Below the pieces are notes generated by a model. The model was not told the DNA's origin and ran no database searches. It saw only the letters and a program-made list of their open reading frames with translations. DNA of 63,486 nt from positions 1 to 63,486 of the forward strand of contig CAZSMV010000003.1 in assembly GCA_964608215.1 (NCBI GenBank). The letters are read 5' to 3'. Below are positions 5,918 to 24,287 of this stretch, piece by piece; within the stretch, counting starts at the first letter, position 1, and the number at the start of each line of letters is the position of its first letter. This DNA is from an uncultured Staphylococcaceae bacterium. Lineage in GTDB: Bacteria; Bacillota_I; Bacilli_A; RFN20; CAG-826. The position numbers and the translations under genes are program-made.

Positions 5918-8900
5918 TTAAAATTCTTTTGCGTGTAACCAATATCCAGACACTGTCTTTTCTTCTGATGTGCCTTCGTAAACGAAACCATAGTGAATTT
6001 CAAAATCTAAATAGTGGAAATTTGCATAATCATCGCCTAATAAAGCACCATCAATAACAGCATCACCTGAGAATGTCATTGTAAGAACACCATTTTCATA
6101 TTTTGCTGTTGGCTCTTCAACATATGCTTCATTACCTTCTGCATCAATTGCATCGACTTGGACACTAATATTAGAAACATATTTTTCTTGAACAGTAAGT
6201 GGTAATTTAACAGTATATGATTTATTAGCTGCATTAGCTTCAAAGGAAGCTTCGCTCTTATCGAATGAAATTGGTTCAACAATTTCTGAATTTTCATTTA
6301 ATAATGCACCACCATTACCAGCTGCCCATAAAGCATCATATGACCAATATTTATTAGAATATTTGATATCTGCAGAAACTTTAGAAGTATCACTGCCAAA
6401 GTTAAGTGAGAAACCACTAGAATTATCTGATTTATAGATATCTAATCCGTTGAAAACATCCAATGCGTTACCAGTAATCTGATAAACGTTTTGACCATCA
6501 GTAGCACCAACTTGAACACCATCATAAATAATGGAATTTGCTAAGTTATCATCATATGGAACATCTCTCTTATCAACAGATAATGTAATTAATGATTTTC
6601 CATTTGCTCCAACCCAATCATTTTTGCCATTACTATTTGTATGGGTTTGAACAGCTAAATCAAATGATTCTTTCCAAGATTCTGTATATGTTGAGAAGTA
6701 GTAGTTTGTACTAGCTCTGTCTACAGTTGTAATATCAAATGAAATTACAGTTGGATTGTCCTCAGTACCAATTTCATAGTGACCAGCATCCAATTCTTCT
6801 TGAATTGCTTGTTCAAAATAGTTAGCACCAACAGATTTCCAATTGGTTAAATCATCTAATTCTGTTCCAAATACATCATTAACAGCTTTCTTGTGTGATT
6901 CCGAAGTGTTGTAAAGGGCAGTTTTTGGTGAAGCCTTAGTAACTGGTAATGTAATTGTAGTTGTTGTTTCAGCATGTGCATATTCAGCCAAAGCATTTCT
7001 ATCCATACCAGTCATTAAACCTTTATAGAAGTTATTATTACTTAATGCAGGTTTAACTTCGTATCCATCAGTTCTAACAGTTGCAACATAGTCGGCATCA
7101 AACCATTCATCATAAGTCGCTTTATCATAAGTATTAATATAAAGTGGGTTTAAAAATGATGAGCCAGAAACTTTCTTTCTTAATGGAGATGAAGCATATT
7201 TATCCCAATAATCGGTAGGAATATTTGAATAATCAGTCAAACCGGCTTCAAATTTTTCAATATACTCGTTTGCATTTGTACCTAAAGCAGAATTGACATT
7301 TAAATGTACACCTTTAATGTTGTACATGCTTCTTCCAGCATTATCTTTGCATAATACTTCTGGCCAATCTTCATTTCTTGCAAATGCGATTGTCTTCTTT
7401 GCTTCATATGTCATCGTGTAATATGGACCAACGCATAACATTGTATCAAGTGGAGTTAAACTTCCTTTGTTAGTGCCATAAACTTTAGCACCAGAAATGA
7501 CATCGCCATCCCCTAAATCTTTGACAAAATCTTCACAAATTGGATTGCCCCATAAACCATCAACTTGATATTCTGCATAATCTGGAGTAATTTTATCGTT
7601 AAATGTAATAGTAATTGAATTATCACTATGATCTAATTTAACCCCAACTTTTTTCATGAACTCTTCATCGCTATCAAGTTGTGTATAATCTTTTGATGCT
7701 GCATAGTATTCAGCATAACCTTTAATTTGTCTATTCTTTGTACTTTCAGCAGCTTGTTCAGCACCTCTATACCAACCAACTGATTGAGTAGCCATTAATT
7801 TAAATGGAGTTAAGTAATCTTCTAATTTAATTGCTCTCTTATCATATTTTGATAATGTAGCATCTTTTGTAGAAGTTCTATAGGATAATCCTTTTGTAAC
7901 ACCATTTGCACCATCGGAATCTCCACCAACTCTAACATAAATTTTCCAAGTATCACTTGCACCATTTGCATCAGGATTTACAGCTTCTGGAGAATCAAAT
8001 CTTGATAAGTTAGCTTCATAACCATAAGAATCACCTGCAGCATTGACATTACTTGACCAATAACTTGCCGAAACATATGAATATAAATCGCTAACAGCTG
8101 CTTCAGAACTATTTAAGTAGTTAAAATTACCTAAATCGCTAGCATCTGACATTTGATCATGTAAGAACCATTTATAAGCATCAGTATGTTCTTCATCCAT
8201 TGGTGAATCAATAGTACCATATGATAATAAACCATAACCATAGCCTGGAATGTAGTTTTCATTATCTAATAAAAATGAGTGCAAACGTGATGAATATAAT
8301 TGGTAACCACTATTAATTAATGATCTAATTGGAGCATTACCATTGTTGTATAAATATTTTTCACTAGTACCAGTCATCTTTTCTCTTTCGGTACCAGCTA
8401 ACGATGAATAGTTATAATATGCACTCTTTGCAATAGTACCTTCTGGAACTACTGTAACATGCATTTTAGTTTTAACACCATCATCATCGCTTGTTGCAAA
8501 TAAATAAATGTAATAATCTTTTGCTTCTGAAACCTTTGGGAAGCTAACAGTTCCATCTTTTGAAACACTAATTTGGCTTGAAGGATTCCCTTCGCCATCA
8601 GTGACTGAAACACCTAATGAATATCCTTCTGGTACAGAATAAGCATATAAATGTGCTGAAGAACCGCCTTCGACTGTTGATTCACTCTTTTGTGAAATAT
8701 AATCTGGTGATTCTCCTCCTGTTCTTACTAAATAACCCGCAAAATATTTTGGGCTTGAATACTCAACAACATAATCGGAATCCATCTCTAAACTAGTATC
8801 TGGTTTCCCAACATTTCTTGTATATGTTGTTGATCCTTTATTTCCGTCATCATTGCAGGATGTTAAGACTGAGACCGTACCTAACAAAGCTACTGCAGAA

Positions 8901-8932
8901 AGGACGCAAATTCCTAATTTTCCTTTTTTCAT
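5918..8932 (-). CDS. oppA: Unusually large (~1000 aa) oligopeptide-binding lipoprotein OppA
   Basis: Lipoprotein signal MKKGK...VLTSC; family-5 SBP-like segments (CVGPYYTMTY, ARNEDW, LSNNNFYKGL..GMDR); first gene of the opp operon. Confidence 0.8.
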   Translation of the reverse strand: MKKGKLGICVLSAVALLGTVSVLTSCNDDGNKGSTTYTRNVGKPDTSLEMDSDYVVEYSSPKYFAGYLVRTGGESPDYISQKSESTVEGGSSAHLYAYSVPEGYSLGVSVTDGEGNPSSQISVSKDGTVSFPKVSEAKDYYIYLFATSDDDGVKTKMHVTVVPEGTIAKSAYYNYSSLAGTEREKMTGTSEKYLYNNGNAPIRSLINSGYQLYSSRLHSFLLDNENYIPGYGYGLLSYGTIDSPMDEEHTDAYKWFLHDQMSDASDLGNFNYLNSSEAAVSDLYSYVSASYWSSNVNAAGDSYGYEANLSRFDSPEAVNPDANGASDTWKIYVRVGGDSDGANGVTKGLSYRTSTKDATLSKYDKRAIKLEDYLTPFKLMATQSVGWYRGAEQAAESTKNRQIKGYAEYYAASKDYTQLDSDEEFMKKVGVKLDHSDNSITITFNDKITPDYAEYQVDGLWGNPICEDFVKDLGDGDVISGAKVYGTNKGSLTPLDTMLCVGPYYTMTYEAKKTIAFARNEDWPEVLCKDNAGRSMYNIKGVHLNVNSALGTNANEYIEKFEAGLTDYSNIPTDYWDKYASSPLRKKVSGSSFLNPLYINTYDKATYDEWFDADYVATVRTDGYEVKPALSNNNFYKGLMTGMDRNALAEYAHAETTTTITLPVTKASPKTALYNTSESHKKAVNDVFGTELDDLTNWKSVGANYFEQAIQEELDAGHYEIGTEDNPTVISFDITTVDRASTNYYFSTYTESWKESFDLAVQTHTNSNGKNDWVGANGKSLITLSVDKRDVPYDDNLANSIIYDGVQVGATDGQNVYQITGNALDVFNGLDIYKSDNSSGFSLNFGSDTSKVSADIKYSNKYWSYDALWAAGNGGALLNENSEIVEPISFDKSEASFEANAANKSYTVKLPLTVQEKYVSNISVQVDAIDAEGNEAYVEEPTAKYENGVLTMTFSGDAVIDGALLGDDYANFHYLDFEIHYGFVYEGTSEEKTVSGYWLHAKEF

Positions 8933-9010
8933 TTTTTTCTCCTTTTCCCTTCCATTGCCCATTTTTGCAACAGATTTTATAATTATATTTATATCTTTTT
9001 TTTATGATTA

Positions 9011-9038
9011 AAAAAAGACCAAATCTTAATATGGTCTT
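9011..9038 (-). terminator. Intrinsic terminator after the protease-1/DUF3899 pair
   Basis: Minus strand AAGACCA..TGGTCTT followed by a T-run. Confidence 0.6.
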
Positions 9039-9049
9039 AATATCTGCTT

Positions 9050-9457
9050 TTAGTTTAATGATTGTTTATATATGATAAATAAAACAACAGAAACAATTAA
9101 ATATAAAGATCCTGCAAATTCTATTGGAATTACCAAATATCGATTACATTTTCTTTTTACACTTTTCATTTCTCGATAGTCAAATAAACTATCATACTTT
9201 TTCGTGCCATTTGCTTTTATTGTCGAAAACAAATTTGCAAATCCAACTGAAAATACATCAAAAGCTCCCTGATTCCCTGTCAAATATAATAATCCGCCAA
9301 AAATTAACACAGAACCAGAAAGAAAAAAGCCATCTATTGAATTATAAAATGAAAAACCTTTATATAAAGAAAAAAACACATAAATTAGCGCCCCTATCGC
9401 TAGAGACACTAATAATGTGATTAAATTTCTTAATGTAAAAATATATTCCTTTTTCAT
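9050..9457 (-). CDS. Small three-TM membrane protein, DUF3899-like
   Basis: Hydrophobic segments and GAFD motif. Translationally coupled to protease 1 through a TAATG overlap at 9455-9459. Confidence 0.55.
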   Translation of the reverse strand: MKKEYIFTLRNLITLLVSLAIGALIYVFFSLYKGFSFYNSIDGFFLSGSVLIFGGLLYLTGNQGAFDVFSVGFANLFSTIKANGTKKYDSLFDYREMKSVKRKCNRYLVIPIEFAGSLYLIVSVVLFIIYKQSLN

Positions 9458-12400
9458 TACTTCTTAAGCTTTCTTAATTTTTTTAATCTAAAATTAATTA
9501 ATAAAATTAAGGTTACAGCAATTACTATACCAATGCAAATAGAAATAACAATTATTAATACAGGATTAAATGAACTTTGACTAATTCCACCTTCAAAACT
9601 TACAGCAAAATCTAATGTAGAAACACTAAATGAAACAGAATTGCCACTTTCATTTTCAGCAATTTTTGTAAAATTATCTCCACTTATTGAGTAGGCTTTA
9701 ATTTCTTGCTCAGTTTTACCATTAGTTGCGCCAACATAAATTGTAGATTCAGAAGTCAAATTGAATTTAGAACCATCTGATTTATAAACGGAGATCTTAT
9801 ATCTATAAGCTTCACCTTCTAAAGCATTTGAAACACTAGTAACTTTCACAGACATGCTTGCATTTGTTGGGATATCACTATTAAATACAACTACATTATT
9901 TTTTACATCAACCAATCCAGATAATCTATTACCAGATGCACTTTCAATTAAAATATAAGCACTCTTTAGATTTGCTAATTTTGATTTGTCGATAATGAAA
10001 TACTTTTCTCCAGTTGAAGATAAAATACTTTTTGCTTCAATTCCTCCATATGTAACCTTATTTGGATTTCCATCAAAGCTCATTCTAATTTCATTATCAT
10101 CAAATTCAACGCTAGTGCTATTTAAACTCTTTGCACCAACTCTTACTTTGTATGTTTTCGTAAATGTAGATCCATCAACAAGAGTATAACTCATTTTGAA
10201 ATTATACAAACCTTCTGGATACGTTTTTCTATCACTAAAATCAAGGAAAGTATAAGCACGATCTGCAATAATTCCAGAACTAATAAGACTTGTTGTTGGC
10301 ATTGTTTTATTTAATGTATGAAGTTTATCTGTGTCCGAATAATAAAGACTAAACATATGATCAGTTAAAACAAGTTCTCCAGTTTCAACATTTGTCATTG
10401 TAATAGTATTGTCTTTTACTGTTCTATTAACATATTGTTGAATAACTGTATAGTTCGAAACACCAGTTACACCAACAATAATTTCATCATTTTCTTCATC
10501 ATATCCTACTTCTTTTCCATATGTTAAGAAACTTGCAGTATTTTTGCTAACAATACTGTTAAGTTCAGCGTCCGTTATTTCATGTTTTAATCCAACCCAC
10601 ATGGAAGCAAAATTAGCGTTTCCAAAACCACTTAAATTTTTATTAACATAAGTATTTAACAAATCTGAACCATAAACCTTATTAGAATCCTTTTCAAAAC
10701 TAAATGGTTCAACAGGTTCTTCTTTATCATAATCGCCATAAAATCCTAAATATGGGATTGAAAGATTTTCAGATCCATCTAATGATTCAAAAACAACATA
10801 GCCTTCTAAATAAGTTCCATTTTCAAAATTTGAATCAAGATATTTCTTATTTTCTTCGGTAATCTTCGCTTCAAAATCAAGTGTGGTCTCGCCAGCACCA
10901 ATTGTGACTTCATTAGTTGAATAAGTCAATAATACATCTCTATTTGTTTTATATGTATAATTTGAAAGATCCTTATAGGTTCCGTCAATATTAGCAACTT
11001 GTGGAGCTTGAACATATAAAGTAGCCTTATATTTTTTAGATGTACTTGATTCATTAACAGCGGTTATGCTTAATTTAACATCACCAACTTTAACATCATC
11101 ATTATTTTTAAGTTCAACTTTAGCTTTGCCATCAACATTACCTTTTAAATAAACATCTGAATTTAAAGCACCACTTACATCAACTTTCCCTGCACCAACT
11201 AATCTTGGAGAATAATATGCTCCATTTGGTTGCTTAATTGGATCAGCAGTTGACATAAATCTATTAGTAATAGTTTTTCTATATTCAACTCTCTTTGTTT
11301 CGTCATTAATACCATCATAATCGCTTAAAAGACTTGCAACGGATCCAGTGTAATTTGGAGTTGCCATACTTGTACCATCATAATAAGCATAAGCATTTGT
11401 GTCTGGACCAATAGAACTATAAACTCCACTCCCTGGAGCACTAATATCAGGTTTTAATTGTAAGGTTGCACTACTTCCATTGCTTGTATAATCTGCAACT
11501 TCTTCTTTTTGAATAACAATTTTCTTTTCAGTTTGATTGACAAGATATTCTCCATCAGCACTAGAAATACCACAAATTGGTCGATAATATTGTTCTTCTA
11601 AAGCTGCATTACCACTACTAGCAGAAAAATCAAAATATGAAATCAACCCATCAGAATCAGGATTATTATAAATTATGACACCAATTGCTCCATGCTTTGC
11701 GGCATTTCTTACTTTTTCAGTAAAAGTAATGGTTCCTCTTTTAATAACTGCAATTTTCCCATTTACATCAATATTGGCATAATCTTTTTCTTCGCCAAGA
11801 TTTGGAACAACTTCATATTCAAGAACAGCACTATCTTCACCATCTTTAATAAATGAATAGAATGGTTTAGCTTTATCACCGTAAATCATATCAGTGTATT
11901 TATTAGTAGATGAATCAGTGTAAGTATGATTTATGATTTGGTCTCTAATCGCTATAACTTGACCATCAAGTGTTGAAATAGTAGTAGAAACATTTTTATC
12001 TTCTAAAAGATTTAAAGCACCAACAACAGTTGCTTCTTCTCTTAAGGCTTCGCCACCTAATTTACCATCTTCAACTGAACTAGTAGTTGTTTTTGAATAT
12101 ACACTAGTTGCACCTTCATCCCTACCATCATTCCCGGCTGCAATATTTGAAGAAATTCCTAAATCGCTAATTTTTTGATAAACAGATTCATAAACTGAAT
12201 CTTCTTCATCAAAATCATTAATACCTCTGCCAAAAGACATATTAATAGCATCAACATTTAAAATAACACAATCGTTCAAAGCCTTTAAAATAGTTTCATC
12301 ACTTGTAAAACTGCCATTATCATCTGTAAGTCTCATAAGTGCCACTTGTGCATTTGGAGCGATGCCTTGGTAATTATCTCCATTTCCAGCTGCAATACCA

Positions 12401-13110
12401 GTAACATGTTGACCGTGATAACTTGTATTATTTTTATAGCTCATTTCTAAAGGTTTACTTGCATTTCCATAATTATAATAAAAAGGAATTTTATTATTTT
12501 TTCTACCATATCCTTTAGCCGAAAAATCACTTGCTGTTGTAACTAAGGTACTAATTTGTGATTCAGTATATCTTAAATCACTATTTAAATCATTAAAGAT
12601 TTCATGATCTAAATTAAATGAGTCATCTAAAATTGCAACAAATGTATTCTTTCCGCCATTAGAATCACTATTGATGTTCATTGCTTTCTTAGAATAGTTT
12701 TTGTCAGGAGCAGTATAAACTCCATCTACAGTTGTATAAGAATCATATGAAAAACTTTCAAGTTCTCTATCAATTGTATATGTCTTACTTTCCTTAACGT
12801 TATCTACCAAACTTAAATTTTCAATTTTACTTACATCATCACTATTAACATCAATAAATAAAATATTACTAGCATGCTTAATATTGGAAGTAATTCTATA
12901 ATTTAATCCAACAACACTTTGAAGTTGCTTTTTAAAGGCTTGTTCAACTTCATTTCTTGATTCTACATCAGTCCCATTAACGTCTTTTAATTCAACAATA
13001 ATTCTTTTATCCCTAACAATACCATCCCCACGATTAGTATTATTAACGAGTAAAAAAGAAAAACCTAACACGAATAAGGAAGACAATAATATACCTGTTC
13101 GTTTTTTCAT
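9457..13110 (-). CDS. Membrane-anchored S8 (subtilisin/lactocepin/C5a-peptidase-like) serine protease, paralog 1
   Basis: Triad D (AILDDSF), H (YHGQHVTG), S (GTSMATP); oxyanion AAGNDG; PA domain (GKIAVIKRG); N-terminal signal; C-terminal TM with Lys-rich tail. Confidence 0.92.
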   Translation of the reverse strand: MKKRTGILLSSLFVLGFSFLLVNNTNRGDGIVRDKRIIVELKDVNGTDVESRNEVEQAFKKQLQSVVGLNYRITSNIKHASNILFIDVNSDDVSKIENLSLVDNVKESKTYTIDRELESFSYDSYTTVDGVYTAPDKNYSKKAMNINSDSNGGKNTFVAILDDSFNLDHEIFNDLNSDLRYTESQISTLVTTASDFSAKGYGRKNNKIPFYYNYGNASKPLEMSYKNNTSYHGQHVTGIAAGNGDNYQGIAPNAQVALMRLTDDNGSFTSDETILKALNDCVILNVDAINMSFGRGINDFDEEDSVYESVYQKISDLGISSNIAAGNDGRDEGATSVYSKTTTSSVEDGKLGGEALREEATVVGALNLLEDKNVSTTISTLDGQVIAIRDQIINHTYTDSSTNKYTDMIYGDKAKPFYSFIKDGEDSAVLEYEVVPNLGEEKDYANIDVNGKIAVIKRGTITFTEKVRNAAKHGAIGVIIYNNPDSDGLISYFDFSASSGNAALEEQYYRPICGISSADGEYLVNQTEKKIVIQKEEVADYTSNGSSATLQLKPDISAPGSGVYSSIGPDTNAYAYYDGTSMATPNYTGSVASLLSDYDGINDETKRVEYRKTITNRFMSTADPIKQPNGAYYSPRLVGAGKVDVSGALNSDVYLKGNVDGKAKVELKNNDDVKVGDVKLSITAVNESSTSKKYKATLYVQAPQVANIDGTYKDLSNYTYKTNRDVLLTYSTNEVTIGAGETTLDFEAKITEENKKYLDSNFENGTYLEGYVVFESLDGSENLSIPYLGFYGDYDKEEPVEPFSFEKDSNKVYGSDLLNTYVNKNLSGFGNANFASMWVGLKHEITDAELNSIVSKNTASFLTYGKEVGYDEENDEIIVGVTGVSNYTVIQQYVNRTVKDNTITMTNVETGELVLTDHMFSLYYSDTDKLHTLNKTMPTTSLISSGIIADRAYTFLDFSDRKTYPEGLYNFKMSYTLVDGSTFTKTYKVRVGAKSLNSTSVEFDDNEIRMSFDGNPNKVTYGGIEAKSILSSTGEKYFIIDKSKLANLKSAYILIESASGNRLSGLVDVKNNVVVFNSDIPTNASMSVKVTSVSNALEGEAYRYKISVYKSDGSKFNLTSESTIYVGATNGKTEQEIKAYSISGDNFTKIAENESGNSVSFSVSTLDFAVSFEGGISQSSFNPVLIIVISICIGIVIAVTLILLINFRLKKLRKLKK

Positions 13111-13294
13111 CTTTCTAACTTCCTCCTAAATAAATATTAAAAATTATATCACTATGGAAAAAATCTAAAATAGATTTAACGATGATTTATTTAAGTTTTA
13201 ATGTTTATAAAATTTAAAGAATTGAAATAATGAATCATTAAATTACACTTAATGCTTTTGCATATAAGAAACAGAATATTGATGAACTAAACTT

Positions 13295-14575
13295 TTAATC
13301 TTTTAAAGCAGTAATTGGAATAACATAAACGCCATCTTTTCTTTTATATACAGCATTCAATACTCCACATATAACACCTTTTATAATTGGTGCTTTTCCT
13401 CCGTGTTTCACTATGTTATTACATACTTTATTAAGGTTAGAGGCAGCTTCTTCTATTCTATTTGCTGCAAGTTTAATTTCAAAAGCGCAATATGAACCAT
13501 CATCAAGTTCCATAATGGCATCAATTTCTTCGTTATTGTAATTTTGATAATGATAAAGCTTAGCCCCAATTCCAGCAGCATAAATTGATAAATCATGCTC
13601 AACTAAGGCTTCAAATAAAAATCCAAAAGTATTTAAATCATTCATTAATTTCTTTTCATTTAAATTTAAAAGAGCACAAGCTAATGCAGGATCACAAAAG
13701 TGTCTTTTATATGCTCCCTTAACTCTTAAAGATGATCTTATATTAGGATCAAAAGGTGGTTGATTATTAAATAGAAACATTCTATCAAGCGCTTCAATAT
13801 ATCTAGTAACTGTATCAGCTGAAATATTTTTGCCATCATTATCTAAAATATCTTTTGCGATTGTTGATATACTTGCTGTAGTTGTCTCATTTCTTGCTAA
13901 TGATTTTAAAATTTGCTCTATTCTTTCTTTAGAATATCTTTTACCTTTTTCATCTGTTAAATTACTATTTATAATTGTTTCTATGTATGATTTAGGATTA
14001 ATTGTAGGATTTTCTGAATCAATATTTTTTGGCCATCCTCCACGTACAATAAAATAAGCTAATTTTTCTAAACTTACTTCTTCTATTATTTTTTCTTCAA
14101 ATTTTCCATTTATTAAATCAGAAAGAGAAACAATACCAGATGAATCTCCAGATTCATATAAAGACATAGTATTCATTTTAATACTAACAATTCTACCTGC
14201 TCCATAATGTAAAATTCCTTTCTTTTTTGGAGTTGATGAACCTGTTAATATCAAACTTCCATAATCGTTATTTTTATCTACAAAAGCTCTTGTTGCATCC
14301 CATAAGGAAGGAACTTCTTGCCATTCATCAATCATTCTTGGCTTGCTGCCAGTAAGTACAAGACTTGGATTAATACTTGCAAGTTCTCTATTAGAAAAAT
14401 TATTGGTTGGATCGCCAACTAAAAATTCACTATTTGCATGATGTGCTGAAGTCCATGTTTTTCCGCACCACTTAGGTCCTTCTATGCAAATTGCTCCACA
14501 ACTTTTTAGATATTCATCTATAGTTTTATCAATAATTCTTGGTTTATATTCTTTATCATTATTTAATGTGCTCAT
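13295..14575 (-). CDS. AAA+ ATPase (AAA_14) with DUF4143 / PD-(D/E)xK nuclease-like C-terminus
   Basis: Walker A GPKWCGKT, Walker B MIDEWQ, HFCDPALA, and C-terminal EID...FEIK motif. Confidence 0.85.
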   Translation of the reverse strand: MSTLNNDKEYKPRIIDKTIDEYLKSCGAICIEGPKWCGKTWTSAHHANSEFLVGDPTNNFSNRELASINPSLVLTGSKPRMIDEWQEVPSLWDATRAFVDKNNDYGSLILTGSSTPKKKGILHYGAGRIVSIKMNTMSLYESGDSSGIVSLSDLINGKFEEKIIEEVSLEKLAYFIVRGGWPKNIDSENPTINPKSYIETIINSNLTDEKGKRYSKERIEQILKSLARNETTTASISTIAKDILDNDGKNISADTVTRYIEALDRMFLFNNQPPFDPNIRSSLRVKGAYKRHFCDPALACALLNLNEKKLMNDLNTFGFLFEALVEHDLSIYAAGIGAKLYHYQNYNNEEIDAIMELDDGSYCAFEIKLAANRIEEAASNLNKVCNNIVKHGGKAPIIKGVICGVLNAVYKRKDGVYVIPITALKD

Positions 14576-14674
14576 ATAGTCAAATATGCTCCTTTCTCAT
14601 CTAACAATTTTGCATCTCATAATTAAGTTTTCTTCAAACAATAAAAATAACTATCTCATGCGATAATTTTAAAA

Positions 14675-14760
14675 TTTTACGGAACTTTTGTCAATTATTT
14701 TGCGGAACTTTTGTCAATTATTTTGCGGAGTTTTAGCAACATATTTTACGGAACTTTCAT
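14675..14760. repeat. 23-bp tandem direct-repeat array (three full units plus a partial fourth)
   Basis: 14675 TTTTACGGAACTTTTGTCAATTA; 14698 TTTTGCGGAACTTTTGTCAATTA; 14721 TTTTGCGGAGTTTTAGCAACATA; 14744 TTTTACGGAACTTT. Confidence 0.92.
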
Positions 14761-14775
14761 TATTTGAACACTGCA

Positions 14776-14895
14776 ATCTTTAAGTTCTACTATATTTTTT
14801 TCTCAAATAACTTCGCCCCCATAATTTTGAGTTATTAACAAATAAAAGCATGATGCAAATAATATGGATATTAATATCCACATTCACTTTTTCAT
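14776..14895 (-). pseudogene. 5' remnant of a fourth S8 protease paralog
   Basis: Manual translation MKK*MWILISILFASCFYLLITQNYGGEVI*EKNIVELKD aligns with paralog 2 MKKRIG...NGSEVIRDKKIIVELKD. Two in-frame TGA stops; purine-rich RBS-like segment upstream. Confidence 0.75.
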
Positions 14896-14955
14896 TTTTT
14901 TATATTCCTTCCACATCAAAGCTAATTATTCATGAATTACATGCTTATTAAAAAG

Positions 14956-14983
14956 TTCAAGCACCAAGATTTTGGTGCTTGAA
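14956..14983 (-). terminator. Intrinsic terminator after protease 2
   Basis: TTCAAGCACCAA-gat-tTTGGTGCTTGAA hairpin with a minus-strand T-run. Confidence 0.75.
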
Positions 14984-15002
14984 TAAACAATTATTTATAA
15001 TC

Positions 15003-18000
15003 TTATTTTAATTTTCTTGTTCGCTTACCAATTAATAATGCTCCAATAACAACGATTAATACAAAACCACATATTGATGATACAAATATTAATAGTATCA
15101 ATAAACTAGACATATCTTGTGAATCGTCATATAAAATTACAAACTTACCAGAAGTAGTCTTCATTGTTATTTTACCATCAACCAATTCATATTTTATTTC
15201 ATCGCCTAGTCCATTTTTCCCAACTGAATATATTTTCATATTCTTAGTTGGTTCACCATTAAATGCATCAAATGTAATCGTGATTTCTGAATCAATTGGA
15301 AGAGTCGAATAATCAGAATCTATAATTGTGAACGTATACAAATAACCATGTTTGTATGAACCATATTTTTGTAGTTTGTAATTAATTGATTCATATCCAA
15401 CTAAACCATCTTTTATTACTGAAAGTCCATTATTTATATATACCAATGCAGTTTTGATATTTCCGTAATTATCATATAAACGTACAAGAAAAGTTTTATT
15501 CTTAATACCATACGTCATAAAAACACTTATATCAAATAATGAATAATAACCATTTTCATCTTTCATTATTTCACAAGCAAAATCGCCCACATATAATTCT
15601 TTTAAATTACTTCCGCTTAATCTTATATATAAGTATTCCCTACCATCTATTTCTTTGATTGTTTGTGAATCAATTGAAGTGTCATTAACAAAAGACGTTT
15701 CACCTACTTTTAGATTATAAGATTTTGTAAACATAGAACCATCAACTAAAGTGTATTCAAATTTAAATTCGTATAAACCATCTTCTACGCCATCTGGAAA
15801 TTGTTCTTTATTTGAAAAATCAAATACAGAATAAGCTCGATCTGCATAATATCCCTTGGAAGATAAAGAGCTTACAACATATGATTTGTATAATTTGCCT
15901 GAATCACTACCATCAGACATGCAAAGGCTAAACATATGGTCAACATGCTCACTATCATTTATAGGCGCCAATAAATTTTTACCACTACTTTTATCAATCA
16001 TAGTTACTTTATTCGATAAAACGCTACGATTAACAAATTGTTGAATAACAAATTTCCCATTTTTACCACTTTGATTCAATATAACTTCATTATTTCCCCT
16101 ATCATACATTACTTTTGTGCCAAATGTGGCAAAGCTTGCATAATTTTTTGCAACATAAGTATATTGTAAACTAGTTAAATCATTTCTAAGAGAAACCCAC
16201 ATTGAAGAATAATCTGCACAATTATATCCCATAGCATCAATTGCATAATTCAATAAGTCAGAACCATACACTTTATTTTCATCTTTTTCAAAATCAAATG
16301 GTTCAACAGGTTCTTCAGCATCATAGTCTCCATAATATCCCATATATGGAATACTTAAATCTTCGCCATTATCTAACGATTCAAGAATTAAATATCCTTC
16401 TAAATATGTGCCATTTTCAAAATTTTCATCTAAATATTTTTTATTTTCTTTTGTAATACTCGCATTAACTTCAAATTTGGATTCACCAGGAATTACAGAA
16501 ACTTCGCCAAGAGACACTTCTCTTAACAAAACATCTTTAGAACTTTGATATTTTTCATTTGAAAATTTTTCGCCAAATGTAACATCTACACCAGTAATTT
16601 CTGGAGCTTGTATTGTTAATCTTAATTTATATGTTCTATTCTCTTTTGATTCATTTATGGTTTTTACTTCAAATTTAACATTACCTTCCTTAATATCGGA
16701 ATTATTCTTAAGTTCAATTTTGGCTTTGTTTTCATTATTACCTAATAAATACACGTTTGAATTATAGGCTCCACTTGCATCAACTTTTCCAGCACCAACA
16801 AGTCGAGGAGAATAGTAAGCACCATTAGCTTGTTTAATAGGATCTGCTGAAGACATTATTCTTGCAACTAATTCTTTTCTTTTAGATATCCTATTTTCTT
16901 CATTAATTAAATCGTAATTGCTTAAAATATTTGCAAATGCACCAGTATAATTTGGCGTAGCCATACTTGTTCCACTCATATATTCATAATGAGAGGTGCC
17001 ATCATTCGGATTAAAATAAGTAGAACTATAAATACTAGTCCCTGGCGCAGCAATTTCAGGTTTTAACTGAAGAGATGCAGTACTTCCATTACTTGTAAAA
17101 CTAGAAACTAACTCTCTTGAAATAACAATTTTCTTTACTTCTTGATTTATAAGTACTTTACCATAATAAGAATCAGTATATGCACATGGTGCATAATATT
17201 CTTTTTCTATATCAGTTAATTCGGAATTACCAGCACGATCTGTTGCACCTTCGTTATTATAAATAATTACACCAATGGCACCATTTTTAACAGCATTCCT
17301 GGTTTTCTCTGTAAATGAATAGTCTGGATTATCTTCATCTTCACCATCAGGTACACCCCTTTGAATTACTGCAACCTTTCCCTTTACATCGATATTTTTA
17401 TAGTCATTAGCACTACCATAATTTGGAACTACAACATATTCGAGTTCAACACTATCTTTGCCTTCAGGTATTAGAGAACAAAATGGTTCATCGCCACTAT
17501 GTCTTTCACCATCATCATCTTCAAAATATGCATATTGTTCTTCAATTTTAATAGATGCGCCGCTTAACGTAGCTATAGAAGATGAAAGATATTTATAATC
17601 GAAATTATAAATTGAAGCAACAGAAGTTGTTTTATCACTAATTAAATCACCACCAAGAACACTAGTTTCGGAATTGCTAGTTAATAAATTTTGGTTTAAT
17701 GGAGAATAATTATAATCTCTACCATCATTTCCGGCTGAATAATTAACAGCAATTCCCTTATCATATAGTTTATCAAAGACGCTTTGATATAAATCATCAA
17801 CAAAATCAAAATCGATAATTCCAATACCAAAAGACATATTAATTGCATCAACATCAAGTGCTGAGCAATCATTTAATGCATTTAAAATGGCTTCATCGCT
17901 AGAAAATGATCCGTATGAATCGGTAACCTTCATTAATGCTAGTTGCGCATTTGGGGAAATTCCTTTAAATGAATCACTATTTCCTCCTGCAATTCCTGCA

Positions 18001-18683
18001 ACGTGTTGTCCATGATAAGTGTTATTATATAAATATGTTAAATCAGTATTATTCGTTCCATAACTATAATAAAAAGGAACTTTATTATTTTTATATCCAG
18101 CTTTTTTTGCTGAAAATTCACTAGTTGAAATAATATTTTTAATATCTTCTTTAGAATATCTTACATTAACATTTTTTAACTCATTAAAAACTTCATGATC
18201 GATTTCAAATGAATCATCTAAAATAGCGATAAATGTATTTTCACCATTTTTCGAGTTTTCATCGATATTCATTGTTTTTGCAGAATCATTTGCATAAGAT
18301 TCCTCTTCATTATCTGAATCGTAAGGCACAATATTTTCATATTCGTAATTATAAGTTTTGCTTTCTTTAACATGGTCAACCAAACTTAGTTTTGAAACCT
18401 TATCAACATCTTCGCTATTAACATCAATAAATAAAATATTGCTCACAGATTTTATATTTGATGTAACCCTATAATTTAAACCAACAACACTTTGAAGTTG
18501 TTTTTTAAAAGCTTGTTCTACTTCATTTCTTGAATTTATATCAGTTCCATCAATATCTTTAAGTTCAACAATAATTTTTTTGTCTCTAATAACTTCGCTA
18601 CCATTACTAGAGTTATTAACAATTAAAAATGAAAACCCTAATACAAACAAAGAAGTTACGAGCGCACCTATTCGTTTTTTCAT
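15003..18683 (-). CDS. Membrane-anchored S8 serine protease, paralog 2
   Basis: AILDDSF, YHGQHVAG, GTSMATP, PA domain and C-terminal TM. The propeptide is very similar to paralog 1. Confidence 0.92.
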   Translation of the reverse strand: MKKRIGALVTSLFVLGFSFLIVNNSSNGSEVIRDKKIIVELKDIDGTDINSRNEVEQAFKKQLQSVVGLNYRVTSNIKSVSNILFIDVNSEDVDKVSKLSLVDHVKESKTYNYEYENIVPYDSDNEEESYANDSAKTMNIDENSKNGENTFIAILDDSFEIDHEVFNELKNVNVRYSKEDIKNIISTSEFSAKKAGYKNNKVPFYYSYGTNNTDLTYLYNNTYHGQHVAGIAGGNSDSFKGISPNAQLALMKVTDSYGSFSSDEAILNALNDCSALDVDAINMSFGIGIIDFDFVDDLYQSVFDKLYDKGIAVNYSAGNDGRDYNYSPLNQNLLTSNSETSVLGGDLISDKTTSVASIYNFDYKYLSSSIATLSGASIKIEEQYAYFEDDDGERHSGDEPFCSLIPEGKDSVELEYVVVPNYGSANDYKNIDVKGKVAVIQRGVPDGEDEDNPDYSFTEKTRNAVKNGAIGVIIYNNEGATDRAGNSELTDIEKEYYAPCAYTDSYYGKVLINQEVKKIVISRELVSSFTSNGSTASLQLKPEIAAPGTSIYSSTYFNPNDGTSHYEYMSGTSMATPNYTGAFANILSNYDLINEENRISKRKELVARIMSSADPIKQANGAYYSPRLVGAGKVDASGAYNSNVYLLGNNENKAKIELKNNSDIKEGNVKFEVKTINESKENRTYKLRLTIQAPEITGVDVTFGEKFSNEKYQSSKDVLLREVSLGEVSVIPGESKFEVNASITKENKKYLDENFENGTYLEGYLILESLDNGEDLSIPYMGYYGDYDAEEPVEPFDFEKDENKVYGSDLLNYAIDAMGYNCADYSSMWVSLRNDLTSLQYTYVAKNYASFATFGTKVMYDRGNNEVILNQSGKNGKFVIQQFVNRSVLSNKVTMIDKSSGKNLLAPINDSEHVDHMFSLCMSDGSDSGKLYKSYVVSSLSSKGYYADRAYSVFDFSNKEQFPDGVEDGLYEFKFEYTLVDGSMFTKSYNLKVGETSFVNDTSIDSQTIKEIDGREYLYIRLSGSNLKELYVGDFACEIMKDENGYYSLFDISVFMTYGIKNKTFLVRLYDNYGNIKTALVYINNGLSVIKDGLVGYESINYKLQKYGSYKHGYLYTFTIIDSDYSTLPIDSEITITFDAFNGEPTKNMKIYSVGKNGLGDEIKYELVDGKITMKTTSGKFVILYDDSQDMSSLLILLIFVSSICGFVLIVVIGALLIGKRTRKLK

Positions 18684-18863
18684 TTTTTATGTACCTCCTA
18701 CGTCACATCGCTTTAAAGAATTATAGACCATTTGTAATGATTACTCTATCATAAATTGATATTTATTTTCATAATTCTTTTTGATAAAAAATAAAAAATT
18801 AAAGTCAAAATTAAACAATGCCTTTTTAAAAATAGACTTCGCAATTATATTTTTAAAAAACAA

Positions 18864-21800
18864 CTAATTATCTATTTCTTTCTTCTTATTGTTTTTAAAT
18901 TTAATGATTAAGAAGATTGTTCCAGAAATAACTAAAATTCCAACCACACTTGTACAAACAACAATAGTTATTATTTTATACCTTGATGAGTTAATTACAT
19001 CATTTTTATTTATTTCATACTCAACTTTGAATTTGTTTGATGAAGCTTTAAAGCTAATAACTCCATTTTCATCAAGCTTAAAATCTGTAACCTCTTGATA
19101 AATGTTATTCTCGTAAGAATATACTTTTATTGAGTCTTTATTGGAAACATCATTTAAATCAATAGTTAATGATATTGTATTTTCCTTATTGATTTCATAT
19201 TCAAAATTATTAGATATCAATTTAAATTCGTAATACTTAGTTTTAACCAATGTTTCATCATTAACTTCTTCATCTATTAAACTAAACCAAACTTTAAAAG
19301 AAGAATCAATTGATGAATCATTATATGTAATTATTTCGTTATCATAAAAAGCAATTAGAAAACCAGTTGTTCTATCATATATATCAATTATTTCTAAATA
19401 ATATGAGCCTTCATTTTCCTCGTATTTCGAAATATCAATATCAATTTTATATTTATCATCGTCTAAACTTATTAACTCAATTTCTTCATTACCTAAAACA
19501 ACTTTTTTAATGTCCTCAGATGTAAAAATTACTTCATAATATTTTTTGTTATCAATAATAATAAAATCATTAGAAATAATTTCAGGAGGTAAAGTTGTAT
19601 ATTCTTTTGAAATTATTACTTTATAAATTTTTGATGGTTGAGTATATCCATTAATTAAAGTATATGTAAAAGTAAGTTCATATTCTCCTTCTTCATAAAG
19701 CAAATTGTTTTGTTCATCAACTAAAGGAATCTCTAGATAAGCCATATTTACAATTTGACCACCACTTATACTTGTGCTTGTATAACATGATTTAACTAAT
19801 GGATGTTCTGAAATGCTTACATAACCAAAAGAATTTAAATTTGATAAGTAAGTATTTAAAACTATTTGACCTGTTTTTTTATTTTTTAAAGTTACTACAT
19901 TATTTTTAATTGCTCTGGAAACAAATTGCTGAATATAAACATAAGTGGATTCATTTTCGATTCCCAAATTAATACGTTCTCTCTTTTTATTATAAGTGAC
20001 TTCTGAATAATAATCTAAAATGTTGCCCTTATTATTTTTAATCACATCTTTTTCAGTTGAAGTTAGTTTTTTATTTCCTACTGAAAAAATACTTCTAAAA
20101 TCTGCATTTTTATAAACAGGTGGGTTTGCAGGATAAACATCAACAAATTGATTAACAATTTCAGACTCATAAACTTTATTTCCATCACGTTCAAATGTGA
20201 ATGGCTCAACTGCATCTCCATTATTATAATCGCCATAAAAACCCATAAATGGTATTGATAAGTCTATGTCATCTTTATTTTGATTTGAAGACTCAAAAAC
20301 AACATATCCTTCAATGTTTGTACCAGATGTAAATTTTTCTAATAATTTTTTGTTTTCTTCGCTTAGAGTATAAGAAAAATCAATTGACGATTCACCCTGT
20401 TTAATAGTAATGTCATATGAAACACTAGCTAAAAGCTCATCTTTATCAGTTTTAACCAAACCTTCATGCAATGAACTCAATGTTGCATCTGGAATAATTG
20501 TTGCTGGAACTTGAACATAAAGTGTTGCTTTATATTTTTTACTTTCGCTTGATTCATTATGTGCATTAATTGTAAATTTAATAATTCCATTTTTAATATC
20601 ATCGTTATTTTTGAGTTCAATCTTGGCTTTATTTAGATCTCCAGTAGATAAATAGACTTCTGATTCGATTGCTTTATCAACATTTACTAAACCTGCTCCA
20701 ACTTTTCTAGGCGACAAATAAGAACCATTTACATATTTAATTGGAGTAGCTGTAGATTGCATTCTTGCCATTAAAGTCTTTTTATAATTATCTAGATTAT
20801 TACCATCATAATTACTAATAATATCAGCCATTGCACCACTAATATTAGGGGCAGCCATACTTGTTCCACTATAAAAAGCATATAGGTTCTCGCTTGTTTC
20901 ATTACTAATGCCACTATAAATATTAGTTCCTGGAGCACTAATATCAGGTGTTAATGATAAATCAGTTTGACCGCCATCACTAGAATATTCAGCATCTATT
21001 CTTCTTCCTATTCTTATAATTTTACTTGATTCATTCGATAATAAATCATATGTGTATGTGCTACTTAAAGCTGTTGGAATATATTCGCCAGAAGATAAAT
21101 TCGATTCGCCACCTGGATTAAAATTAATTACGGTATTACCAAGACTAGAAGTAGATTGCTTAGTATTGCAAATGATAATTCCAATTGCTCCATGCTTATG
21201 CGCATTACGAATTTTTGCAGTAAAAAGATAATTTTTTTCGTTTTCTTTAAGTTCTTCTTGAGTTGGTGCGCCTCTTTTAACAATCGCAACTTTACCATCT
21301 ACATTAATATTTTCATACTCTTCATCAGTCCCATAACCAGCTAATACATATTCCAATTCTAAAAAGTCTTCGTCTTCGTCAATTAGACCTTGAAAAGTAC
21401 TAACCTTAACATCTGTAATTTCAGACCTATTTAAAGCTTCTGGAATTACTTGATCTATTGCATAAAATAATTGATTACTAGCAGTTGAAAAAGAAGAAAG
21501 AATTGTTTCATCATTTTTTAAATTTGTTGCTGATATTGTATTAACCTTTGAATATGAGGAATAAGAACCTATTTCACTTGATTCTATCGTATCAAGTGAT
21601 GTATATTCGCCTACTCCAGTTTCATAATTGCTTTTTCCATCATTCCCTGCAGCAAAATTAACTTGAATTCCTGCATTATTGAGGTTATCAAATATATTTT
21701 TAAAATCATCCGATAAATTATAATCAATTAAAGAAGAACCTAATGATAAATTTATTACATCCGCTTTTAAAAGCATTGCATCTTCTAATGCATTTAAAAT

Positions 21801-22586
21801 CGCATCTATTTTAAAACTTCCAGAATTATTTGTTACACGCATTAAAGCAAGTTGAGAATTAGGTGCGGCTCCTAAAAAAGTATTATTTGCTCCCGCTATT
21901 CCTGCAACATGCGAACCATGATAACTTTTGTTTTTATTATAAGTCATGTTAGTATCGTCAGTTGCATAACTATAGTAAAAAGGGATTTTATTATTTAAAT
22001 AACCAGCTGATTTTGCATAGAAACTTGTATAATTTTTAATTGAATCAATTGTGGCTTTTGTATATTTATAATTGTTTGTTAAATCTTTAAACATTTCATG
22101 ATCGACTTTAAAACTATCATCTATAACACAAATTAAAGTATTTTCTCCATCTTTAGAAGAAGAAGGAATATTCATTTGTATTCGACTATAATCTTTATCT
22201 GGTTTAGTAACATTTTTAGTATCTGGCACAAAATAATCATTTAAATCATCTTCATAACTAATTGTTTGATTTTCAAATACATTTTTTACATAACTTATAT
22301 TTTCAATTTTTTCATAATCTAACGTGCTTATTTGAAGATTAATGATATTAGATATATTAGAATAAGTATTTAAAACTCGGTAATTTAAACCGATTTTTGA
22401 TTTAAGCACATTTAAAAATTTATTTTTTATGGTTTTTCTATCTTCAATTGAATTTGAATCAACATCTTTTAATTCAACAAATATATTCTTATCTCTTTTG
22501 TTTAATGTATCTTTATTTAAATTAGATATTAAAGAGACACTTAATAAGCCAAATAAAACAGCTAAAATACTAAAACGTCTTTTCAT
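18864..22586 (-). CDS. Membrane-anchored S8 serine protease, paralog 3
   Basis: CVIDDSF, YHGSHVAG, GTSMAAP, PA domain and C-terminal TM. Start set at MKRRFS (22586). Confidence 0.92.
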   Translation of the reverse strand: MKRRFSILAVLFGLLSVSLISNLNKDTLNKRDKNIFVELKDVDSNSIEDRKTIKNKFLNVLKSKIGLNYRVLNTYSNISNIINLQISTLDYEKIENISYVKNVFENQTISYEDDLNDYFVPDTKNVTKPDKDYSRIQMNIPSSSKDGENTLICVIDDSFKVDHEMFKDLTNNYKYTKATIDSIKNYTSFYAKSAGYLNNKIPFYYSYATDDTNMTYNKNKSYHGSHVAGIAGANNTFLGAAPNSQLALMRVTNNSGSFKIDAILNALEDAMLLKADVINLSLGSSLIDYNLSDDFKNIFDNLNNAGIQVNFAAGNDGKSNYETGVGEYTSLDTIESSEIGSYSSYSKVNTISATNLKNDETILSSFSTASNQLFYAIDQVIPEALNRSEITDVKVSTFQGLIDEDEDFLELEYVLAGYGTDEEYENINVDGKVAIVKRGAPTQEELKENEKNYLFTAKIRNAHKHGAIGIIICNTKQSTSSLGNTVINFNPGGESNLSSGEYIPTALSSTYTYDLLSNESSKIIRIGRRIDAEYSSDGGQTDLSLTPDISAPGTNIYSGISNETSENLYAFYSGTSMAAPNISGAMADIISNYDGNNLDNYKKTLMARMQSTATPIKYVNGSYLSPRKVGAGLVNVDKAIESEVYLSTGDLNKAKIELKNNDDIKNGIIKFTINAHNESSESKKYKATLYVQVPATIIPDATLSSLHEGLVKTDKDELLASVSYDITIKQGESSIDFSYTLSEENKKLLEKFTSGTNIEGYVVFESSNQNKDDIDLSIPFMGFYGDYNNGDAVEPFTFERDGNKVYESEIVNQFVDVYPANPPVYKNADFRSIFSVGNKKLTSTEKDVIKNNKGNILDYYSEVTYNKKRERINLGIENESTYVYIQQFVSRAIKNNVVTLKNKKTGQIVLNTYLSNLNSFGYVSISEHPLVKSCYTSTSISGGQIVNMAYLEIPLVDEQNNLLYEEGEYELTFTYTLINGYTQPSKIYKVIISKEYTTLPPEIISNDFIIIDNKKYYEVIFTSEDIKKVVLGNEEIELISLDDDKYKIDIDISKYEENEGSYYLEIIDIYDRTTGFLIAFYDNEIITYNDSSIDSSFKVWFSLIDEEVNDETLVKTKYYEFKLISNNFEYEINKENTISLTIDLNDVSNKDSIKVYSYENNIYQEVTDFKLDENGVISFKASSNKFKVEYEINKNDVINSSRYKIITIVVCTSVVGILVISGTIFLIIKFKNNKKKEIDN

Positions 22587-22675
22587 GCAAATTATTATAC
22601 AAAAATCATGATAGGTAACCAAATATTTTTCTATGAATTACATAGAAAAATATCATTTTATGAAACGCAAATAAA

Positions 22676-22711
22676 AACTACCTCATTCAAATTACTTTGA
22701 TAGAGGTAGTT
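22676..22711 (-). terminator. Stem-loop after the 157-aa membrane protein gene
   Basis: AACTACCTC...GAGGTAGTT inverted repeat with a minus-strand T-run. Confidence 0.6.
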
Positions 22712-22739
22712 AATATGCAGTTAATAAATTATTTAATAT

Positions 22740-23213
22740 TTAGTCTTCTTTTTTCAAAAAATAAAATAAAACAAAAACTAACGACATTATGAATCCGGCA
22801 TACATGAAGCAACTTGTAAGTATACTTCCAATGCCTAATGTTGCATTATAAGTTATCCCAATTAATTGAGGTGTGAAAATAACTAATGTACCACCAACCG
22901 CATAAAGAACCATCATAACACCATACGTGATTAAATTGGTCTTTTTTGAAATTTCATAATTAATTAAATTTAAAATTACTAAAACAATTGATGTAATTAA
23001 AGCAACTAAACTTAAAATCCATGCTAGTGTAAGAGGTCCAGTATTCCCTATTTTTGGATTCCCGCCACCAAAAATTCTAAGATATAAAGAATACTTAAAT
23101 ACCCTGCCAGTCGCCTCACAATTTACCGCTCTAAAAGCTGGAGTAATCATAGTTATAACACCAAAAACACTTAATATAATTGATAAAGCATTTTTTAAAC
23201 CCTTATTCATCAT
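22740..23213 (-). CDS. Hypothetical four-TM membrane protein
   Basis: 157-aa ORF with four hydrophobic stretches and GGAGG RBS. Confidence 0.7.
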   Translation of the reverse strand: MMNKGLKNALSIILSVFGVITMITPAFRAVNCEATGRVFKYSLYLRIFGGGNPKIGNTGPLTLAWILSLVALITSIVLVILNLINYEISKKTNLITYGVMMVLYAVGGTLVIFTPQLIGITYNATLGIGSILTSCFMYAGFIMSLVFVLFYFLKKED

Positions 23214-23366
23214 TTCCTCCTTTTTTACTCAATAAAAATATTTTAGATAAAATCAAATAATTCTCAATACATTTTTTTACAAAAAATGATTGTTAAAAAT
23301 AAAAAATAACCAAAAAAATAATTTAGTGGCAAAATAAGAGGATGCAAGAAGGAGGCGTTTTTAAAT

Positions 23367-24283: not shown

Positions 24284-24287
<4 letters not shown>
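23367..24287 (+). CDS. Tyrosine recombinase/integrase (phage/ICE-type catalytic domain)
   Basis: Catalytic R (ALRMGE), K (TPKT), HxxR (HGLRH), H (LRHAS) and Y (DTYSH) are all present; AGGAGG RBS. Confidence 0.9.

Follow-up and report, generated by a model that had tools for sequence, protein, structure and literature searches.

In a 63,486-bp stretch of DNA from an uncultured Staphylococcaceae bacterium (contig CAZSMV010000003.1 of GenBank assembly GCA_964608215.1; hereafter the window), a gene for a 426-aa ATPase with a predicted nuclease domain (13295-14575, minus strand) is preceded by four direct repeats with a period of 23 bp. These four units probably constitute an iteron-like operator array whose reader is the protein encoded next to it, and the role to which the sequences most likely point is cooperative negative autoregulation. 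Arrays with this period are conserved upstream of the relatives of the gene within one protein clade, they stand in a fixed register with the promoter, their cores covary with the predicted recognition helix of the encoded protein, and no other gene accompanies them consistently.

The array overlaps the predicted promoter of the ATPase-nuclease gene

On the gene strand, the array consists of four head-to-tail units between -182 and -97 from the ATG (14672-14757), in agreement with an earlier note on this DNA, which had placed it ~100-185 bp upstream. Tandem Repeats Finder (TRF) reports a period-23 array of 3.7 copies (14674-14757), and the motif TTTTRCGGAR, said in the same note to recur head to tail every 23 bp, is indeed found at 14675, 14698, 14721 and 14744, with a spacing of exactly 23 bp. 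The whole window contains five matches to this motif versus 0.62 expected, and five were reached in 0/100 shuffles. Each unit comprises a 17-bp core and a 6-bp linker, and all are oriented like the gene: unit 1 (core AAAGTTCCGTAAAATAT, 14741-14757; linker GTTGCT, 14735-14740), unit 2 (core AAAACTCCGCAAAATAA, 14718-14734; linker TTGACA, 14712-14717), unit 3 (core AAAGTTCCGCAAAATAA, 14695-14711) and unit 4 (core AAAGTTCCGTAAAATTT, 14672-14688), all on the minus strand. Units 2 and 3 are near-identical, while units 1 and 4 differ from them (CCGT for CCGC, and the tail), so that the description of an array degenerating away from unit 2 is only loosely true. A copy of the window locus with 99% identity (L081) keeps its cores except for one changed base, and of its three linkers one has been replaced.

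The top promoter-like site of the region, TTGACA-17-TAAAAT (11/12 match), lies within the end of the array nearest the gene. The -35 hexamer (TTGACA, 14689-14694, minus strand) fills the linker between units 3 and 4, the core of unit 4 is the whole 17-bp spacer, and the -10 hexamer (TAAAAT, 14666-14671, minus strand) stands where the linker after unit 4 would be. Transcription would start near 14659, giving a predicted 5′ untranslated region (UTR) of ~84 nt (14576-14659, minus strand) with a ribosome-binding site, AAAGGAG, at 14589-14595; two copies of ATGAGAT and one of ATGAGAA are found in this segment (14596-14646, minus strand). An RNA element was considered and rejected: the upstream 205 nt did not fold better than shuffled sequence (z-score 0.06), and a search of Rfam gave no match to the array or UTR at E ≤ 1, with a lone chance match to IsrR elsewhere.

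Arrays of 23-bp units mark a clade of related genes

Homologs were drawn from three independent collections, namely genomes (one genome per species scanned, 80 loci with relatives at 44-82% identity), metagenomes (37-64%) and viral contigs (at least 34%), and the best self-match lag of each upstream region was determined among lags 12-40. Lag 23 was best for 67/76 genome homologs (lag 22 for 5 more), 62/74 metagenome homologs and 22/23 viral-contig homologs, versus 36/473 non-family genes of the same loci, a strongly positive outcome for the enrichment of ~23-bp repeats upstream of homologs that the earlier note had proposed to look for. By TRF, 56/75 genome-homolog loci have an array of period 22-24 within 300 bp upstream, and 58 period-23 arrays occur in 22 kb of upstream sequence versus 8 in the ~518 kb elsewhere in the loci, several of these 8 preceding paralogous AAA_14/DUF4143 genes. 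In total, arrays were identified upstream of ~150 relatives from bacteria and archaea.

The array is a mark of a protein clade (≥34% identity to the window protein) and not of the whole DUF4143 family. Lag 23 was best in 0/15 viral-set DUF4143 relatives at ≤26% identity, distant plasmid homologs in Novosphingobium and Agrobacterium are preceded by only two sites, 22 bp apart, and upstream of those in Thermus, Moraxella and Sinorhizobium an array was not found. An array universal to DUF4143 proteins was rejected on the basis of these relatives, and the earlier expectation for AAA_14+DUF4143 homologs in general therefore holds for the clade and fails beyond it. An exhaustive search assigns ~683/6325 clusters (50% identity) to the array clade, which makes up only part of the PADLOC family PDC-S01 (see below). 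In the Moraxella bovis plasmid NZ_CP087824 (L166:~700-797; L numbers denote individual loci), a 21% identical homolog has no array but a long, nearly perfect palindrome with TATAAT at its centre, AAACCTAGTTTAATTTAAGATATAATCTTAAATTAAACTAGGTTT, which would be a different operator design in a distant subfamily.

Members of the clade carry the labels of Firmicutes, Bacteroidetes, Actinobacteria and of methanogenic or Thermoplasmata archaea, some labels of metagenome-assembled genomes (MAGs; Borreliella, Comamonas) probably being binning errors. Near-identical low-GC genes are assigned to Bacteroides, Prevotella, Parasutterella, Comamonas, “Borreliella” and Methanobrevibacter (L001-L080), reflecting MAG mis-binning, unusually wide horizontal spread, or both.

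Circular alignment of the unit profiles of 92 arrays yielded a family skeleton at positions 1-17, [A/C]A[A/T]nTnnCnnAATGAAA, followed by a poorly conserved linker at positions 18-23. Positions 4, 6, 7, 9 and 10 have 1.7-1.95 bits within an array versus 0.06-0.22 bits between loci, and this fixed-within, free-between pattern is expected for a shared docking geometry with member-specific specificity. The array sequence differs between groups of homologs (with period 22 in a few loci by TRF); it is the 23-bp period and the unit skeleton that are conserved, the core varying by clade, and the repeats are not generally CGG-containing as had been supposed. Units are oriented like the gene in 85/92 loci.

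Unit number ranges from ~2 to 13 across loci and differs between genes for >95% identical proteins (2.7 in L042 vs 5.7 in L078; 4.6, 7.7 and 5.7 in L060, L061 and L063). Very long arrays, of 8-13 units, are located at L050:~160-454, L061:3800-3980 and upstream of the gene in L191. Such lengths, and the differences in copy number among strains, point to a role that goes beyond simple repression, or else to tuning through gain and loss of units. Array-plus-gene cassettes with distinct cores are found near each other, some head to tail (L039:4001-6687, L008:7060-8284, L072:2426-3812), and such neighbours look like orthogonal paralogs. A second array of the gene's own type directly follows the stop codon in L026 (2310-2381) and L118; cores of the own type occur within 250 bp after the stop codon in only 4/91 loci, and a 3′ repeat as a general cassette feature was rejected on this count. 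In Catonella morbi ATCC 51271 (NZ_KI535368), a 23-bp array of three units plus TATAAA (L061:7513-7590) is an orphan, with no ATPase open reading frame after it. It shares its skeleton with the DUF4143 array 3.5 kb upstream, and ~270 bp past it lies a Fic_N/Fic/HTH_24 gene (L061:7852-9000) that has a promoter of its own, TTGACA-17-TAGAAT, with a copy of AAATTGAAATAAG on either side.

Register of the array with the promoter

Of 47 loci with a strong sigma-70 promoter match, 39 have the first base of the -35 hexamer at unit phase 18, and 45 have it at phase 18-20. Given a 17-nt spacer, a -35 hexamer at phase 18 places the -10 hexamer at phase 18 too, and the last core is therefore the promoter spacer. 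In these Firmicutes-type loci the two hexamers occupy the linkers on either side of the last core, and the window has the same layout. A site between the -35 and -10 hexamers is the classic repressor position, and a candidate operator overlapping the core promoter of its own gene, as in an autoregulated repressor, is found in the 39/47 loci and in the window.

The unit length equals the distance from the -35 to the -10 hexamer (23 = 6 + 17). The period is not a mere by-product of sigma-70 promoters, however, because it is also present in archaeal locus L071 and in Bacteroidetes-type loci, where a TAnnTTTG box is found 30-45 bp beyond the array (phase 4-7 in 10/13). It more probably reflects the geometry of the binding protein.

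Covariation of the core with the predicted recognition helix

Array distance is correlated with protein distance (Mantel r=0.66), and when whole-protein distance was controlled for in partial Mantel tests, signal was found on residues 180-223 and 234-274, with its peak at 234-274. Mutual information with average product correction was calculated for every protein column against every unit position in 119 loci (effective number 88). The top pairs were residue 254/position 9 (0.52) and residue 253/position 9 (0.42), followed by a pair at 0.35; residues 253 and 254 are the first two of the predicted recognition helix. Position 9 is T in 27/38 loci with N at residue 254 and in 25/28 with R at residue 253, G in 31/43 with D or E at residue 254 and in 7/7 with K, and C in 7/8 with T. 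Asn usually prefers A:T pairs, Lys prefers G, and Asp or Glu the C of a G:C pair, and the residue-base pattern seen in these alignments fits such preferences.

The association holds under permutation within clusters of close relatives (nominal p=0.0005 for each of the three thresholds). Proteins sharing at least 70% identity outside the winged helix were compared in pairs, and the base at position 9 was different in 48/54 pairs with different residues at 254, versus 25/222 pairs with the same residue. The protein of the window carries A253 and D254, and positions 7-10 of the cores upstream of its gene are CCGC or CCGT, position 9 being G, in agreement with this code.

Domains and predicted structure of the protein

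The 426-aa protein matches two Pfam families only, in the order AAA_14 (residues 28-141, E=1e-11, 45.4 bits, gathering cut-off 27; ATPase core at 14153-14494, minus strand) and DUF4143 (residues 213-369, E=1.3e-29, 103.5 bits, gathering cut-off 28.1). A hidden Markov model (HMM) search places it in PDC-S01 (PDLC04790, E=1.5e-56, residues 9-424 on model positions 10-417 of 422). A search of NCBIfam did not find an informative family, and a sequence search of the PDB did not find a relative. In an alignment of 34 sequences extending down to 23% identity, Walker A (G33..G38-K39-T40, with G33, G38 and K39) and Walker B (D83/E84) are invariant, as is R128 among the relatives aligned.

The AlphaFold 2 model (predicted local distance difference test score 88.4, predicted template modelling score 0.89) comprises an AAA+ core, lid helices, a winged helix and a PD-(D/E)xK domain. 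The predicted winged-helix DNA-binding domain (residues 213-295; 13691-13939, minus strand), which includes the partial Mantel peak, is modelled with helices at 216-228, 236-247 and 253-264, then wing strands; the last of these helices is the predicted recognition helix, ADTVTRYIEALD (13784-13819, minus strand), of which A253 and D254 covary with core positions 7-10. The remainder (residues 296-426; 13298-13690, minus strand) forms a PD-(D/E)xK nuclease-like domain. The motif that had been read as intact (EID...FEIK) is so: D352 of EID, E366 and K368 of FEIK and also E322 are invariant in an alignment reaching 23-27% identical relatives, and this E...D...(D/E)xK set is carried on a restriction-endonuclease-like fold (a helix, then strands 339-368, in the model). 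By motif and fold the protein is thus a predicted nuclease of this superfamily. DUF4143 is listed as a PD-(D/E)xK family of unknown function in a survey of the superfamily (PMC3424549), and the remark in the earlier note that its function was not established agrees with the searchable literature.

The top fold matches are two archaeal AAA+/winged-helix ATPases, 2qen and 2fna (E ~2e-6 to 5e-6; template modelling (TM) scores TMq 0.41-0.42 and TMt 0.49; 13-14% sequence identity). Further matches include Card1/Can2 (to the nuclease domain), Orc1/Cdc6 on DNA, MalT, Apaf-1, Avs5, DnaA, RuvB and RFC. On the predicted model, the AAA+ domain is Orc1/Cdc6- and STAND-like in fold.

Genomic context

Of the three paralogous S8/PA proteases in the window (9457-13110, 15003-18683 and 18864-22622), the first two flank the ATPase-nuclease gene, which interrupts the protease tandem as had been noticed before. 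A terminator-like hairpin after the upstream protease gene (14956-14983, minus strand) sets the array and gene apart from the protease, and because of this hairpin the two are taken to form a separate transcription unit. PDC-S01 genes are expected in or beside known defence systems, whereas the window gene is flanked by S8 protease paralogs. Among the neighbours in 160 loci neither a recurrent defence gene family nor a conserved partner gene was found, any neighbouring gene family being present in ≤13/160 loci, so that the ATPase gene is the only constant companion of the array.

Locus L171 (4545-17200) is syntenic with window 5918-24287 (integrase, 155-aa gene, two S8 proteases, 1015-aa gene, ABC permeases) and has two adjacent proteases without the ATPase gene; the window therefore carries an extra protease copy plus the cassette. 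In L170 (~1000-1400), a relative with a 78% identical protease, the place of the cassette is occupied by a fragment reading GVRGSGKTVAMTSIADFYKK..., apparently a pseudogene of another P-loop ATPase, and the site may be a hotspot for such genes. A clean empty site for the window locus was not recovered among these relatives of the downstream protease (L170, L171). Nor was an insertion scar found when the intergenic pieces flanking the gene were compared with the region between proteases 3 and 2, which gave no meaningful similarity in this AT-rich DNA. The protease cluster is bordered by a gene for a tyrosine recombinase of the Phage_integrase family (23367-24287, plus strand) and a 157-aa gene with no Pfam or NCBIfam match (22740-23213, minus strand); as both are kept in the syntenic L171, they are not markers of a recent island.

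Proposed mechanism and alternatives

In the mechanism that we favour, the winged helix of one protomer would read one core, with residues 253 and 254 contacting core positions 7-10. The AAA+ domain would probably join like-oriented neighbouring protomers head to tail, as in DnaA/Orc-type assemblies, which would make occupancy of the array cooperative and nucleotide-dependent. A protomer bound to the last core would occupy the spacer of the promoter and block RNA polymerase, and negative autoregulation of this kind would hold a potentially harmful ATPase-nuclease at a set level. Binding, cooperativity, ATP dependence and repression as the sign of regulation are what we infer here. At 10.5-10.6 bp per turn, 23 bp corresponds to two turns plus ~60-69 degrees, and one may speculate that successive protomers spiral at ~six per turn, which would be compatible with the six-fold geometry of AAA+ proteins. 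An autoregulatory operator array for an oligomeric DNA-binding protein was among the options raised in the earlier note, and it gains support from the conservation, the register and the covariation.

Several points weigh against this mechanism. In Bacteroidetes-type loci the arrays lie over or upstream of the -33 element, 30-45 bp before the TAnnTTTG -7 box, and not in the spacer, so that activation instead of repression may apply there. Arrays of 6-13 units (L050, L061, L191) exceed the need of simple repression, and 23 bp (~78 Å) is a long step for direct AAA+ contacts. In the window, the ~84-nt 5′ UTR between promoter and gene is several times longer than in most relatives. Covariation shows co-evolution of something with the winged helix and is not binding, and the pair counts are phylogenetically non-independent and the p-values nominal.

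Alternatively, the array could be the 5′ end of a mobile single-gene cassette and a recombination or recognition site for its own ATPase-nuclease, with autoregulation secondary, an explanation we regard as quite unlikely. It would account for DNA homology between related genes in different contexts that begins at the array's distal edge and extends to 0-27 bp past the stop codon, for unrelated gene neighbourhoods (160 loci), head-to-tail cassettes with different cores (L039), the orphan array in L061 and the syntenic relative without the gene, and PDC-S01 is itself defined by “embedding” in other systems, as the window gene is embedded in a protease cluster. These homology boundaries, however, would equally be left by selection on the array, promoter and coding sequence alone, and the sequences seem to fit a compact array-plus-gene cassette relocating as a unit no better and no worse. 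A matching 3′ repeat is also wanting (4/91 loci, as above), no target-site duplications or terminal inverted repeats turned up, although no search was aimed at either, and the window locus has yielded no clean empty site; the GC content of the gene (29.3% vs 28.5% for the window) is neutral. The array as a cassette end, another option of the earlier note, is thus favoured weakly by its distal homology edge and disfavoured by the lack of a 3′ counterpart. Decidedly unlikely, in our assessment, is a loading platform or sensor on which the nuclease is parked until released or activated by infection or DNA damage, as the effector part of a single-gene defence. Invariance of all catalytic residues of the ATPase and nuclease, arrays of up to ~13 units in excess of regulatory need, variation in unit number between >95% identical proteins and the match to the very abundant PDC-S01 family would suit such a role, but the fixed -35/-10 register is explained more simply by regulation, no link between the array and any trigger emerged in this analysis, and in E. 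coli B one representative of PDC-S01 did not protect against T4, T5 or T7 (PMC12881386).

The layout is also that of classic iterons, direct repeats of ~17-19 bp that are spaced at 22-23 bp and precede the gene of a DNA-binding protein, and the fold matches include Orc1/Cdc6 and DnaA, which raises the question of whether the reader of the array could be a different protein, such as a host factor or an iteron-type replication initiator, or whether the array is a plasmid-like origin. This is very improbable, given that even close paralogs have different cores, which follow the recognition helix encoded in cis, no neighbouring gene is conserved, and loci are found in large chromosomal contigs (e.g. 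scaffolds of 442 kb and 772 kb); no AT-rich unwinding element, DnaA boxes or partition genes turned up, although these were not searched for systematically. That the repeats are neutral products of slippage or promoter duplication, without function, is barely credible. The variable unit number of near-identical genes and the equality of 23 bp with the distance between the -35 and -10 hexamers (6+17) are what such an origin would predict, but the same period recurs in Firmicutes, Bacteroidetes and archaea despite different promoter types, the core is better conserved than the linker within an array and covaries with the protein, and control regions lack the period.

A broader possibility, which we consider unlikely, is that the array is more than an operator and that the gene is a self-addressed programmable module, in which the AAA+ nuclease forms an oriented filament on a private 23-bp address. 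One protomer would occupy each unit, two recognition-helix residues would set the address, and the array would be the site of storage, licensing or triggering of the nuclease, or the end that serves for recognition of a selfish cassette. If so, the “embedding” of PDC-S01 genes would be cassette behaviour rather than immunity, and private addresses would let many orthogonal paralogs share one genome.

Comparison with known systems

Autoregulation of the favoured kind is closest to that of theta plasmids such as P1 (RepA), F (RepE), pSC101 (RepA) and RK2 (TrfA), in which iteron arrays accompany autoregulated Rep genes. There, too, several head-to-tail repeats of ~17-19 bp at 22-23-bp spacing lie directly upstream of a gene for a winged-helix protein, the sites overlap the Rep promoter and binding represses it, and specificity diverges between related replicons. 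Tandem repeats at 22-23-bp spacing that adjoin the gene of the candidate binder and overlap its promoter are likewise what is found here. In contrast, Rep proteins have a WH1-WH2 architecture and the protein studied here is an AAA+/winged-helix/PD-(D/E)xK fusion, encoded by chromosomal single-gene modules rather than extrachromosomal elements with an origin, and nothing points to replication.

In MalT and other STAND/AAA+ transcription factors, an ATP-dependent oligomerising NTPase is joined to a DNA-binding domain and acts cooperatively on arrays of direct-repeat boxes in like orientation, as the protein here would do by analogy, and MalT is among the fold matches (8bob_C). Unlike MalT, the protein here has a nuclease domain and no sensor/TPR (tetratricopeptide repeat) arm, appears to be confined to its own promoter and is probably a repressor rather than an activator. 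The combination of AAA+ and winged helix is also that of Orc1/Cdc6 on origin recognition box (ORB) elements and of DnaA on DnaA-box arrays (2qby, 8btg, probability 1.0), the accepted model for DnaA being head-to-tail AAA+ contacts along like-oriented sites; TM-scores are only 0.21-0.23, however, site spacing and sequence are different, and here there is an additional nuclease domain and no origin context. PABY2304 (2qen) and SSO1545 (2fna), the best structural matches, have the same order of ATPase then winged helix but a different or absent C-terminal domain and the low identity given above, and their function is also unknown.

PDC-S01 (COG1373, AAA_14+DUF4143) shares with the window gene the domain pair, the single-gene “embedded” habit and the HMM match. 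It is a “guilt-by-embedding” candidate defence family, reported to rank fourth in frequency among such families of prokaryotes and to be the commonest single locus of rumen genomes (PMC12988326, PMC13356809). The upstream array is not mentioned in the searchable papers on PDC-S01, and its defence role has candidate status; the full-text literature on DUF4143, COG1373, PDC-S01 and 23-bp repeats likewise did not yield a description of the array.

A 23-nt tandem period is also known from BrickBuilt of Porphyromonas gingivalis, a minisatellite/MITE (miniature inverted-repeat transposable element) with promoter activity (unit AGAYCATARTATCCTCTCRTRTG), consisting of intergenic, spacer-free tandem units of strain-variable copy number with leader, tail and terminal inverted-repeat segments in 19 dispersed copies, and with no adjacent ATPase gene reported (PMC4596501). 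Its unit is unlike the skeleton identified here, and on this ground membership of the array in the BrickBuilt MITE was rejected; moreover, downstream cores are rare in our loci (4/91) and terminal inverted repeats did not come to light. The period that the two have in common is no more than a lead.

Implications for the family

Tandem-operator or iteron-like autoregulation is of a known kind; its proposed reader here, an AAA+/winged-helix/nuclease fusion, is new, as is the handle that this provides on PDC-S01. The conserved cis-element is the first concrete handle on a large part of a family without known mechanism, ligand or phenotype, and offers a defined DNA ligand for biochemistry and cryo-electron microscopy as well as a predicted promoter and regulatory logic. 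The two-residue recognition code (N with T:A, K with G, D/E with G:C) is testable by residue swaps, and the clade offers candidates for naturally orthogonal repressor-operator pairs. Phage tests in heterologous hosts may tell little when the gene lacks its native array and promoter or these are misread, and “guilt by embedding” may pick up a promiscuous cassette rather than an immune gene. The same code may account for the coexistence of many paralogs in a genome with no cross-talk between them.

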